Of a DNA stretch of 64,000 nucleotides, positions 59,474-62,747 are shown piece by piece. The notes beneath the pieces were generated by a model. The model saw only the letters and a program-made list of their open reading frames with translations, was not told the DNA's origin and ran no database searches. The stretch is from Escherichia coli. GTDB lineage: Bacteria; Pseudomonadota; Gammaproteobacteria; Enterobacterales; Enterobacteriaceae. The position numbers and the translations under genes were made by a program. The stretch's first letter is position 1. Every line of letters begins with the position of its first letter. The DNA lies in assembly GCF_003019035.1 (NCBI RefSeq), contig NZ_CP027447.1, one strand, 5' to 3'.

Positions 59474-60706
59474 ATGTCGTCATTTGATTACCTGAAAACT
59501 GCCATCAAGCAACAGGGCTGCACGCTACAGCAGGTAGCTGATGCCAGCGGTATGACCAAAGGGTATTTAAGCCAGTTACTGAATGCCAAAATTAAAAGCC
59601 CCAGCGCGCAAAAGCTGGAGGCGTTGCACCGTTTTTTGGGGCTTGAATTTCCCCGACAGAAGAAAACCATTGGTGTCGTATTCGGTAAGTTCTACCCGCT
59701 GCATACCGGACATATCTACCTTATCCAGCGCGCCTGTAGCCAGGTTGACGAGCTGCATATCATTATGGGTTTTGACGATACCCGCGACCGCGCATTGTTC
59801 GAAGACAGCGCCATGTCGCAGCAGCCCACGGTACCGGATCGTCTGCGCTGGTTATTGCAAACCTTTAAATATCAGAAAAATATCCGTATTCATGCCTTCA
59901 ACGAAGAGGGCATGGAGCCGTATCCGCACGGCTGGGATGTGTGGAGCAACGGCATCAAAAAGTTTATGGCTGAAAAGGGGATCCAGCCGGACCTGATCTA
60001 CACCTCGGAAGAAGCCGATGCGCCACAGTACCTGGAGCATCTGGGGATCGAAACGGTGCTGGTCGATCCGAAACGCACCTTTATGAGTATCAGCGGTGCG
60101 CAGATCCGCGAAAACCCGTTCCGCTACTGGGAATATATCCCCACTGAAGTGAAGCCGTTTTTTGTGCGTACCGTGGCGATCCTTGGCGGCGAGTCGAGCG
60201 GTAAATCCACCCTGGTAAACAAGCTTGCTAATATCTTCAACACTACCAGTGCATGGGAATATGGTCGCGATTATGTCTTTTCACATCTTGGCGGCGATGA
60301 GATCGCATTGCAGTATTCCGACTACGATAAAATCGCGCTGGGACACGCGCAATATATTGATTTTGCAGTGAAATACGCCAATAAAGTGGCGTTTATCGAC
60401 ACTGATTTTGTCACTACCCAGGCGTTCTGCAAAAAGTACGAAGGGCGTGAGCATCCGTTCGTGCAGGCGCTGATTGATGAATACCGTTTTGATCTGGTTA
60501 TCTTGCTGGAGAACAACACCCCGTGGGTGGCGGATGGTTTACGCAGCCTCGGCAGTTCGGTGGATCGCAAAGAGTTCCAGAACTTGCTGGTGGAGATGCT
60601 GGAAGAGAACAATATCGAATTTGTGCGGGTTGAAGAGGACGATTATGACAGCCGTTTCCTGCGCTGCGTGGAGCTGGTGCGGGAGATGATGGGGGAGCAA
60701 AGATAA
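59474..60706 (+). CDS. nadR: Trifunctional NAD biosynthesis/regulator protein NadR
   Basis: 410 aa from MSSFDYLKTAIKQQGCTLQQVADASGMTKGYLSQLLN (HTH); NMN adenylyltransferase HTGH motif; P-loop GGESSGKST. Confidence 0.95.
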   Translation: MSSFDYLKTAIKQQGCTLQQVADASGMTKGYLSQLLNAKIKSPSAQKLEALHRFLGLEFPRQKKTIGVVFGKFYPLHTGHIYLIQRACSQVDELHIIMGFDDTRDRALFEDSAMSQQPTVPDRLRWLLQTFKYQKNIRIHAFNEEGMEPYPHGWDVWSNGIKKFMAEKGIQPDLIYTSEEADAPQYLEHLGIETVLVDPKRTFMSISGAQIRENPFRYWEYIPTEVKPFFVRTVAILGGESSGKSTLVNKLANIFNTTSAWEYGRDYVFSHLGGDEIALQYSDYDKIALGHAQYIDFAVKYANKVAFIDTDFVTTQAFCKKYEGREHPFVQALIDEYRFDLVILLENNTPWVADGLRSLGSSVDRKEFQNLLVEMLEENNIEFVRVEEDDYDSRFLRCVELVREMMGEQR

Positions 60707-60739
60707 CCGTGACGAAACGGCTCAAAGGCGAGGTATAAA

Positions 60740-61024
60740 TTGAGTTTTTTTGATGAGTTGAAAACCTCTCTGGAAGAGGCTGTCGAGATTAAACAAGGTT
60801 TAAAAGAACCTGCACGGGTGACCCGCTACGAAATTGCGGATGTTAAAGCTATTCGTGAGCAACTCAACGTTTCTCAAAGTGAGATGGCAAAAGCTCTGGG
60901 AACCAGTGTAGATACCATTAAAAGCTGGGAATCGAAGCGAAGAAATCCTACGGGATTGGCTGCAAAAGTACTTGCCACAATTAAAGAAAATCCTGCCTTT
61001 TTCCGGGAACTTGCCTCCCATTAA
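60740..61024 (+). CDS. Small XRE-type HTH protein, HigA/MqsA-like antitoxin family (no partner toxin)
   Basis: 94 aa, TTG start with GAGG SD; HTH core VSQSEMAKALGTSVDTIKSWESKRRNPTG. Confidence 0.55.
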   Translation: MSFFDELKTSLEEAVEIKQGLKEPARVTRYEIADVKAIREQLNVSQSEMAKALGTSVDTIKSWESKRRNPTGLAAKVLATIKENPAFFRELASH

Positions 61025-61038
61025 TCATTTAACTATTA

Positions 61039-61068
61039 CCGGATGCGATGCTGGCGCGCCGCATCCGG
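61039..61068. repeat. REP palindrome between the HTH gene and ettA
   Basis: ccggatgcgatgctggcgcgccgcatccgg. Confidence 0.45.
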
Positions 61069-61079
61069 CATTTTACGCA

Positions 61080-62747
61080 TTACTTCGCAATACGCTTGTA
61101 CTTGATACGCTTCGGCTCCAGTGCGTCTGCGCCCAGCGTGCGTTTCTTGTACTCTTCGTACTCAGTAAAGTTACCTTCGAAGAACTCAACTTTACCTTCA
61201 TCCTGGTAATCCAGAATGTGTGTGGCGATACGGTCGAGGAACCAACGGTCATGCGAGATAACCATCGCGCAGCCCGGGAACTCCAGCAGGGCGTTTTCCA
61301 GCGCGCGCAGGGTTTCGATATCCAGGTCGTTGGTCGGTTCGTCGAGCAGCAGCATGTTGCCGCCAACCTGCAGCAGCTTCGCCAGATGCAGACGACCACG
61401 CTCACCACCGGAGAGTTCGCCAACGCGTTTACCCTGATCAACCCCTTTAAAGTTAAAGCGACCAACGTAGGCGCGGCTTGGCATCTCGGTGTTACCGATC
61501 TTCATGATATCCAGCCCGCCGGAAACTTCTTCCCAAACGGTTTTGCTGTTATCCATTGAGTCACGGAACTGATCGACAGATGCCAGTTTCACCGTTTCAC
61601 CTAAAGTGATGGTGCCGCTGTCTGGCTGTTCCTGACCAGAGATCATACGGAACAGGGTTGATTTACCCGCGCCGTTCGGACCGATGATCCCGACGATCGC
61701 CCCTTTCGGGATCGAGAAGCTCAGATCATCAATCAGCAGGCGATCGCCGTAAGATTTACGCAGGTTGCTGACTTCCAGCACTTTATCGCCCAGACGCGGT
61801 CCAGGCGGAATAAACAGTTCGTTGGTTTCGTTACGTTTCTGATATTCGGTGCTGTTCAGCTCTTCAAAGCGCGCCAGACGTGCTTTACCTTTCGACTGAC
61901 GGCCTTTAGTTCCCTGACGTACCCACTCCAGCTCTTTCTCGATCGACTTACGACGCGCTGCTTCTTGTGAAGCTTCCTGCGCCAGACGTTGATCTTTCTG
62001 CTCCAGCCAGGAGGAGTAGTTACCTTCCCACGGAATACCTTCACCGCGGTCCAGTTCGAGGATCCAGCCCGCAACGTTATCAAGGAAGTAACGGTCGTGG
62101 GTAATCGCCACAACGGTGCCTTCGAAGTCGTGCAGGAAGCGTTCCAGCCAGGCCACGGATTCGGCATCCAGGTGGTTGGTCGGTTCGTCGAGCAGCAGCA
62201 TGTCTGGTTTTTCCAGCAGCAGGCGGCACAACGCCACGCGACGACGCTCACCACCGGAGAGGTTAGCGATTTTCGCGTCCCAGTCCGGCAGACGCAGCGC
62301 ATCCGCCGCACGCTCCAGCTGAACGTTCAGGTTGTGACCGTCGTGAGCCTGAATGATCTCTTCCAGACGGCCTTGTTCAGCGGCCAGCTTGTCAAAATCG
62401 GCATCCGGATCGGCGTACAGTGCATACACTTCATCCAGACGTTTCAGGGCGTTAACCACTTCAGAAACCGCCTCTTCAATGGACTCACGCACGGTGTGTT
62501 CCGGGTTCAGTTGCGGTTCTTGCGGCAAATAACCAATCTTGATATCCGGTTGCGGACGCGCTTCGCCTTCGATGTCTTTATCAATGCCCGCCATAATGCG
62601 CAGCAGGGTGGACTTACCCGCGCCGTTCAGACCCAGGACACCAATTTTTGCCCCAGGGAAGAAACTCAGAGAGATGTTTTTCAAAATATGACGTTTCGGC
62701 GGAACAACTTTGCCGACACGATGCATGGTATAAACGAATTGAGCCAC
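61080..62747 (-). CDS. ettA: Energy-dependent translational throttle protein EttA (ABC-F ATPase)
   Basis: 555 aa; two ABC cassettes (GLNGAGKST, GPNGAGKST; LSGGER signatures). Confidence 0.95.
   Translation of the reverse strand: MAQFVYTMHRVGKVVPPKRHILKNISLSFFPGAKIGVLGLNGAGKSTLLRIMAGIDKDIEGEARPQPDIKIGYLPQEPQLNPEHTVRESIEEAVSEVVNALKRLDEVYALYADPDADFDKLAAEQGRLEEIIQAHDGHNLNVQLERAADALRLPDWDAKIANLSGGERRRVALCRLLLEKPDMLLLDEPTNHLDAESVAWLERFLHDFEGTVVAITHDRYFLDNVAGWILELDRGEGIPWEGNYSSWLEQKDQRLAQEASQEAARRKSIEKELEWVRQGTKGRQSKGKARLARFEELNSTEYQKRNETNELFIPPGPRLGDKVLEVSNLRKSYGDRLLIDDLSFSIPKGAIVGIIGPNGAGKSTLFRMISGQEQPDSGTITLGETVKLASVDQFRDSMDNSKTVWEEVSGGLDIMKIGNTEMPSRAYVGRFNFKGVDQGKRVGELSGGERGRLHLAKLLQVGGNMLLLDEPTNDLDIETLRALENALLEFPGCAMVISHDRWFLDRIATHILDYQDEGKVEFFEGNFTEYEEYKKRTLGADALEPKRIKYKRIAK

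Follow-up and report, generated by a model that had tools for sequence, protein, structure and literature searches.

Introduction

A small open reading frame (ORF) lies between nadR and ettA in the 64-kb stretch of Escherichia coli DNA analyzed here (the window). The original prediction described it as an orphan antitoxin gene of the HigA/COG2944 kind, encoding an XRE-type helix-turn-helix (HTH) protein. The question raised by this locus is whether an antitoxin gene is indeed present without a toxin gene and, if so, how it came to be alone between these two genes.

Orphan antitoxins are abundant in E. coli (PMC10790755). In V. cholerae, the toxin HigB2 is inactivated when a disordered N-terminal segment of HigA2 folds onto it, and the operator is bound by the HTH dimer at the C-terminal end of HigA2 (PMC5416850, PMC11006873). 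A literature search on NadS, the product of the ORF (together with nadR, antitoxin, or the family name), returned a PIRT-Seq expression report (PMC12350097) as its sole find, and no description of the nadR-ettA locus as a toxin-antitoxin (TA) remnant was found in that search.

Results

The nadS Gene and Its Surroundings

The ORF has the length, TTG start, and good Shine-Dalgarno sequence that had been described, and its coordinates are exact. The Shine-Dalgarno sequence is GAGG at 60730-60733, 6 nucleotides 5' of the start codon. The nadR stop codon occupies 60704-60706, and nadR and nadS are on the same strand. The gap between them is short, as stated earlier, but measures 33 nucleotides and not 34. 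The region is 100% identical to that of E. coli strain SCU-301, from which the PGAP annotation was transferred onto the window coordinates. The gene is not an unannotated one, since RefSeq/PGAP already names it nadS, with the protein WP_000007436.1. The features of the region are listed in Table 1.

Table 1. Features of the nadR-ettA region in window coordinates.
Feature	Position	Strand	Basis
nadR (NadR regulator / NMN adenylyltransferase / ribosylnicotinamide kinase)	59474..60706	+	ORF list, PGAP of SCU-301 region
Junction 'CCG'	60707..60709	+	Alignments of four spacer states
Toxin 3'-end remnant (..T K R L K G E V *)	60710..60738	+	Base-for-base alignment with toxin CDS end
nadS, 94 aa, TTG start, stop TAA 61022-61024	60740..61024	+	ORF list, HMM, annotation
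REP-like GC-rich palindrome, then CATTTTA	61039..61068		RNA fold
ettA (energy-dependent translational throttle ABC-F protein), convergent downstream neighbor	61080..62747	-	ORF list, PGAP

Between nadS and ettA, which converge, the REP-like palindrome folds into a hairpin of -20.9 kcal/mol (z = -2.7, RNA fold). This hairpin is probably a shared transcript-end or stabilizing element of the two genes; a simple terminator scan gave no call on it. In strain PD23, which has the same toxin-less state as the window, IS1397 sits in the nadS-ettA REP palindrome (L091 3089-4437).

Family, Fold, and Class of NadS

NadS matches the NCBIfam equivalog NF041265 ('NadS family protein') along residues 1-94 on profile positions 1-94, with 182.6 bits (cutoff 60 bits) and E = 1.2e-54. 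A chance ORF or a wrong start is ruled out by this full-length match and by identical PGAP calls. The HTH domain that had been proposed was recovered with HMMER as Pfam HTH_3 (PF01381) at residues 35-79, with 40.4 bits and E = 3e-10 against a gathering cutoff of 23.

The closest solved relative by sequence is V. cholerae HigA-2 (5jaa; E = 2.2e-6, phmmer, residues 33-91). An AlphaFold (AF2) model of NadS was built from 79 homologues and is of modest confidence, with a mean pLDDT of 63.6. Its top Foldseek matches are all HigA2, and the C-domain of 5j9i superposes at an rmsd of 1.5-2.0 Å over 63 residues with TM(target) 0.78-0.85, at a NadS-HigA2 identity of only ~28-32%. The N-terminus of the model forms a helix at residues 3-18, followed by coil to residue 34, with pLDDT below 50 at residues 1-7 and 22-31. 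The C-terminal part is a five-helix HTH domain (residues 35-93). This layout is consistent with the HigA2 architecture (PMC5416850).

The phmmer alignment spans residues 33-91 only, so that residues 1-32 of NadS show no sequence-level alignment to the disordered region of HigA2. The N-terminal segment is strongly conserved inside the NadS family. On the basis of the model, residues ~1-34 form a putative disordered toxin-neutralizing segment. Residues ~35-93 form the XRE helix-turn-helix dimerization and predicted DNA-binding domain. By sequence and fold, NadS is classed as a HigA2-type antitoxin of the XRE-HTH kind. This agrees with the orphan HigA/COG2944 assignment of the original prediction, which is further borne out by the HigB2-like toxin encoded 5' of an identical NadS in 673 genomes.

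The same prediction also called the protein MqsA-like, and this label is rejected. NadS contains no cysteine and therefore lacks the zinc domain that defines MqsA. The MqsA models score under their cutoffs: PF15731 reaches 20.5 against a cutoff of 30, and TIGR03830 (CxxCG_CxxCG_HTH) reaches 38 against 61.8, with the HTH part alone covered. E. coli MqsA (YgiT) resembles NadS in its C-terminal XRE-HTH, which is the next-best Foldseek match (3fmy, E = 0.058, 1.8 Å over 60 residues), and differs from it in its N-terminal part, a zinc-binding CxxC-CxxC domain through which MqsA binds MqsR.

The Toxin Remnant and the Four States of the Spacer

The 29 nucleotides that precede nadS correspond to the last ~9 codons and the stop codon of a HigB2-like RelE-family toxin gene. 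The reference for this comparison is the toxin CDS of strain RIVM_C037884 (L001 1799-2131; 333 bp, 110 aa), whose product matches Pfam RelE (PF06296) at 2e-8 and HigB-2 structures at 8e-16. The remnant carries the nadS Shine-Dalgarno sequence. The earlier statement that there is no upstream toxin gene stands, only this 3' remnant of the gene lying in the 33-nucleotide gap. No toxin-like sequence was found by tblastn in the whole 64-kb window (best E = 2.5).

The nadR-ettA spacer was sorted into four states across 5,426 complete E. coli genomes. The toxin gene is intact at the site in 673 genomes, at least 80% of nadS is present in 730, and some nadS sequence is present in 4,962.

State A contains the toxin gene, annotated as a 'RelE/ParE family toxin' (110 aa, WP_001298496.1), with nadS beginning 1 nucleotide later. 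It is present in ~12% of genomes (for example RIVM_C037884, E2348/69, and many APEC strains).

State B contains nadS alone and is present in ~1% of genomes, among them the window, SCU-301, IAI39, and CE10. The count of ~57 genomes is an estimate obtained by subtraction (730 - 673); in at least 19 genomes the state was confirmed by one continuous match. In this state, nadS starts with TTG in three sequences (the window, IAI39, and PD23) and with ATG in three others (AR_0077, STEC383, and Z226). Since both codons are found within state B, TTG is a later polymorphism.

State C, grouped here with similar forms, contains the first 114 nucleotides of nadS followed by REP sequences. It is present in ~78% of genomes, including K-12, and is called a pseudogene by PGAP.

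State D contains REP sequences only, with no nadS sequence. It is present in ~9% of genomes, such as those of ST131.

The spacer is 373 bp long in the window, 307 bp in K-12, and 120 bp in ST131. The earlier statement that K-12 has only a short spacer was roughly right at best: at 307 bp the K-12 spacer still includes the beginning of nadS. In ST2747 (L089 601-1315), nadS is frameshifted and a TauE/SafE sulfite-exporter gene stands in the expected place of ettA; this spacer is a further rearranged state.

The protein WP_000007436.1 is identical in toxin-bearing and toxin-less strains. State A and the window share this protein, the flanks, and the downstream REP hairpin. State A differs from the window in its ATG start and in retaining the 333-bp toxin gene and a promoter region of ~90 bp that contains two palindromes. 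Approximately 395 bp of the full form are absent from the window, comprising the post-nadR spacer, the promoter/operator, and the toxin gene as far as codon ~101.

The 'CCG' that links the nadR stop codon to the toxin remnant is found at the same junction in K-12-type and AR_0077 sequences. Because states B and C have the same junction, one deletion removed the promoter region together with the first ~101 codons of the toxin gene. The 'CCG' itself is unexplained filler or divergence, and no direct repeats were found at the deletion endpoints when these were searched in the full form. In a cryptic-clade Escherichia genome (L005) the junction is different and ~100 nucleotides of the toxin 3' end are left, and this is therefore an independent toxin deletion at the same locus.

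The small insertion suggested by the original prediction is replaced by this deletion of the toxin gene and promoter, of which the toxin 3' end is the surviving trace. Insertion of a lone HTH gene is ruled out by the toxin 3' sequence that survives upstream of nadS. The same 29 nucleotides are a strong argument against a toxin gene having inserted into a pre-existing nadR-nadS arrangement.

The K-12 Stub

The 'nadS' of K-12 is a 55-aa chimeric ORF in which NadS residues 1 to ~37 are followed by a REP-encoded tail (L002 1741-1908). The NadS-derived segment coincides exactly with the putative toxin-neutralizing N-terminal part. The stub and the window gene share the toxin-deletion junction, the Shine-Dalgarno sequence with the same translation-initiation region, and the first ~37 codons. 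The stub differs from the window gene in the loss of the HTH domain, in its ATG start, and in its REP-derived end. Its changes are 5 nonsynonymous against 2 synonymous (omega ~0.7), which indicates relaxed constraint.

The stub (RS26030 in BW25113) has been reported by PIRT-Seq as a newly detected translated gene, and is counted there among the small proteins 'co-conserved' with a functional neighbor, in this case nadR (PMC12350097). This 'new small protein' is an N-terminal NadS stub fused to REP sequence, and probably a remnant of a TA module.

Candidate Operator and Transcription

In 58 of 65 loci, a GTAC-N3-GTAC palindrome, typically GTGTACTATGTAC, precedes the toxin start codon by 29-59 nucleotides. 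Two such palindromes, GTGTACTTAGTAC and GTGTACAATGTAC, are arranged in tandem at a distance of 21 bp in the E. coli full form (L001 1748-1782). Many other species have one, and operator number thus varies within the family. Judging from its sequence and position, the palindrome is a probable operator. By analogy with V. cholerae HigA2, whose footprint TGTACGC-N5-GCGTACA overlaps the promoter (PMC11006873), NadS may bind this element. No GTAC-N3-GTAC palindrome occurs in the 64-kb window, the element having been lost together with the toxin.

Seven loci from Enterobacter, Lelliottia, Trabulsiella, and Pseudenterobacter (L046, L047, L049, L053, L059, L062, and L065) have no GTAC-N3-GTAC palindrome. 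In this subgroup the toxin gene stops ~65 nucleotides before nadS, and ~100 nucleotides 5' of the toxin there is a conserved GGAAGAGTAA-ATTGCAGC ... GCCTG ... CAGGC ... TTGCTGC sequence. The GGAAGAGTAA-ATTGCAGC element is possibly an alternative operator or a hairpin.

No promoter-like site was found in 60300-61200 by a consensus scan, which also missed the toxin promoter of the full form and so is insensitive here. A scan for terminators on the + strand found none between nadR and nadS. Since neither a promoter-like site nor a + strand terminator was found there, transcription of nadS would be low-level and would most likely stem from read-through out of nadR.

NadS Beyond E. coli and on Plasmids

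One genome per species was scanned, which gave 80 NadS loci, mostly in Enterobacterales and a few in other Gammaproteobacteria; these were selected as intact high-scoring matches. An intact homologous toxin gene lies directly 5' of nadS in 63 of the 80, and nadS is intact in all 80. In the remaining 17 loci the toxin genes were independently deleted or broken, eight being truncated or stop-containing and nine having no tblastn toxin match. At least five of these nine hold toxin remnants on inspection. Three of them (L006, L014, and L080) retain the first ~15-20 toxin codons, with the operator visible in L006 and L080, and two (L011 and L021) retain the toxin 3' end only. The orphan loci of Rheinheimera and Buttiauxella are in non-syntenic contexts, and they are therefore independent events and not one shared orphan lineage.

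In three closely related Kosakonia genomes with syntenic flanks (L006, L009, and L010), the toxin gene is damaged in three different ways: one copy has an internal deletion but retains the operator and ~19 initial codons, one is deleted at its 5' end, and one is interrupted by a stop codon. The nadS gene is intact in all three. Rheinheimera pacifica (L083 621-899) contains a second NadS-like ORF of 93 aa, ~2.1 kb upstream of the main NadS. In the sequences filed as 'Acinetobacter phage MD-2021a' (CAKLQH020000045.1 / CAKLQF020000035.1), a HigB2-like toxin homologue is labelled 'transcription elongation factor GreB', a likely mis-annotation.

By tblastn, the toxin was found in 871 plasmid records, of which 34 are from Escherichia and many are small mobilizable enterobacterial plasmids. 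One plasmid from E. coli and one from Shigella encode toxins 76-77% identical and NadS proteins 81-84% identical to those of the chromosomal module, and the plasmid NadS has a near-identical N-terminal segment (MSFFDELK-SLEEAVEIK). The plasmid RelE/NadS modules (for example Shigella boydii p600690_6) resemble the chromosomal one in having two genes of 110 and 94 aa. They differ from the window in being complete, in lying between mobilization and replication genes, and in presumably serving plasmid maintenance; WP_078167444.1 and WP_032242302.1 are plasmid toxins of this kind. One 4.9-Mb E. coli record filed as a plasmid in PLSDB (NZ_CP134663.1) is evidently a chromosome.

Selection or Decay of the Orphan Gene

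The window nadS shows 0 nonsynonymous and 2 synonymous differences from the gene of toxin-bearing strains. The unchanged protein fits a recent origin or continued selection, and the allele itself shows no decay. Across species, the median dN/dS is 0.060 for orphaned and 0.062 for paired nadS, and at the syntenic Kosakonia locus omega is 0.03-0.12; these low values may largely reflect divergence that predates toxin loss, at loci pre-chosen as intact and high-scoring. They hint at a possible reason for the retention of orphans.

In ~87% of E. coli genomes, nadS is either shortened or missing altogether. The original prediction had named absence or disruption in most relatives, together with the lack of an HTH match, as evidence against the ORF. 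The first is in part what was found in E. coli, and the HTH match is present; this combination fits decay of a real gene and not a spurious ORF. The E. coli orphan is most likely a neutral, not-yet-decayed remnant and not one retained for a new role, and it would in time pass into the truncated state of K-12 and the empty state of ST131.

Discussion

The nadS gene of the window is very probably the antitoxin remnant of a chromosomal HigB2/HigA2-type module whose toxin and promoter were deleted, and a neutral one. A type II module of this kind was once located between nadR and ettA. In its intact order it consists of a promoter, one or more probable GTAC-N3-GTAC operators, the 110-aa toxin gene, and the antitoxin gene starting 1 nucleotide past the toxin stop codon. 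The toxin is a RelE-fold homologue of ribosome-dependent mRNases. If NadS acts as V. cholerae HigA2 does, its N-terminal ~35 residues would fold onto the toxin and inactivate it, and its C-terminal HTH would sit as a dimer on the promoter inverted repeat and repress the operon.

A single ~395-bp deletion in the ancestry of the window took away the operators with their promoter and the first ~101 codons of the toxin gene, leaving nadS intact together with the 29 nucleotides of toxin 3' end that still supply its Shine-Dalgarno sequence. As a consequence of this deletion, the window nadS is without a cognate toxin and without an operator in cis. A later A-to-T change produced the TTG start codon, and in the K-12 lineage the 3' two-thirds of nadS were lost after the shared deletion.

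The intact nadS module and V. cholerae HigB2/HigA2 (5jaa, 5j9i, 8a0x) are alike in their toxin-first order, in the homology of both partners, and in a TGTAC/GTACA half-site inverted repeat 5' of the toxin gene. HigA2 and NadS both have a short N-terminal segment before the HTH, which in NadS is a low-confidence prediction of one helix. The half-site spacing is shorter in the nadS modules (GTAC-N3-GTAC, as opposed to the N5 arrangement of V. cholerae), and two repeats are present in the E. coli full form compared with a single one in V. cholerae. The window itself differs from V. cholerae in having neither toxin nor operator, and no intact TA pair is adjacent.

A first alternative is that the orphan NadS has been selected to neutralize plasmid HigB2-family toxins, can also act in trans as a repressor at their operators, and would thereby make the loss of such plasmids tolerable to the host. 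Such an anti-addiction role has been considered in the literature for orphan antitoxins (PMC10790755). The toxin-nadS module is common on mobile DNA, the plasmid modules are similar to the chromosomal one and near-identical in the N-terminal segment, and nadS orphaned in other species keeps an omega of ~0.06. However, this dN/dS signal may predate orphaning and is ascertainment-biased, and neutralization would have to cross to toxins of 76-77% identity, which is putative. The state of the locus in E. coli also argues against this role: the full-length orphan is present in ~1% of genomes, ~78% have a stub with no HTH, and ~9% have nothing, and the window allele has no promoter and a weak TTG start. 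As an account of the window gene, an anti-addiction role is therefore quite improbable. The general proposal that orphan NadS, and perhaps the 55-aa K-12 stub as well, is a selected chromosomal immunity against plasmid HigB2-family modules is likewise considered unlikely. If it were true, the pattern of a deleted toxin and a kept antitoxin (17 of 80 species) would reflect selection and not the order of decay.

A second alternative is that NadS is a domesticated, NAD-linked regulator, either a small transcription factor or a partner of NadR, co-transcribed and co-conserved with nadR. The two genes are on the same strand with a 33-nucleotide gap and no terminator between them, and the K-12 stub is listed by PIRT-Seq as co-conserved with nadR. 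Against this, nadR adjoins nadS in only one of the 80 loci of other species, which is itself from an Escherichia genome; elsewhere nadS is linked to the toxin, in unrelated contexts that include plasmids. The linkage to nadR is explained by the landing of a mobile TA module at this site. The DNA-binding domain has been lost in most E. coli genomes, and the palindrome conserved in the family is missing from the window. A role of this kind is very unlikely.

That NadS is half of a working pair, controlling an unlinked toxin elsewhere in the same genome, is less probable still: it has no direct support beyond the consideration that the searches of the genome collection would miss distant paralogues with less than ~65% DNA identity, whereas the protein-level search of the source genome, which covered 64 kb, found no toxin-like sequence, megablast found at most one toxin per genome, always chromosomal and in only 673 genomes, and a distant blastn search with the whole module added only 37 plasmid places. 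Both the NAD-linked role and the unlinked toxin partner have essentially no support.

The reading of nadS as a neutral antitoxin remnant thus builds largely on what is known already, namely the curated NadS family, the RefSeq annotation, the mechanism and structure of HigA2-type antitoxins, and the existence of orphan antitoxins. What is new is at the level of annotation only: nadS and the K-12 'new small protein' are described here as pieces of one decaying HigB2/HigA2-type module. Toxin loss with the antitoxin left behind is an ordinary step in the decay of TA modules, and the finding matters little beyond annotation. The name 'NadS' probably tracks the landing site of a mobile TA module in E. 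coli and not NAD metabolism, and both this name and the functional tie of the K-12 small protein to nadR are probably misleading. The pair, the orphan, the stub, and the empty site form a clean natural series within one species, and this series may serve as a test bed for orphan antitoxins against plasmid addiction.
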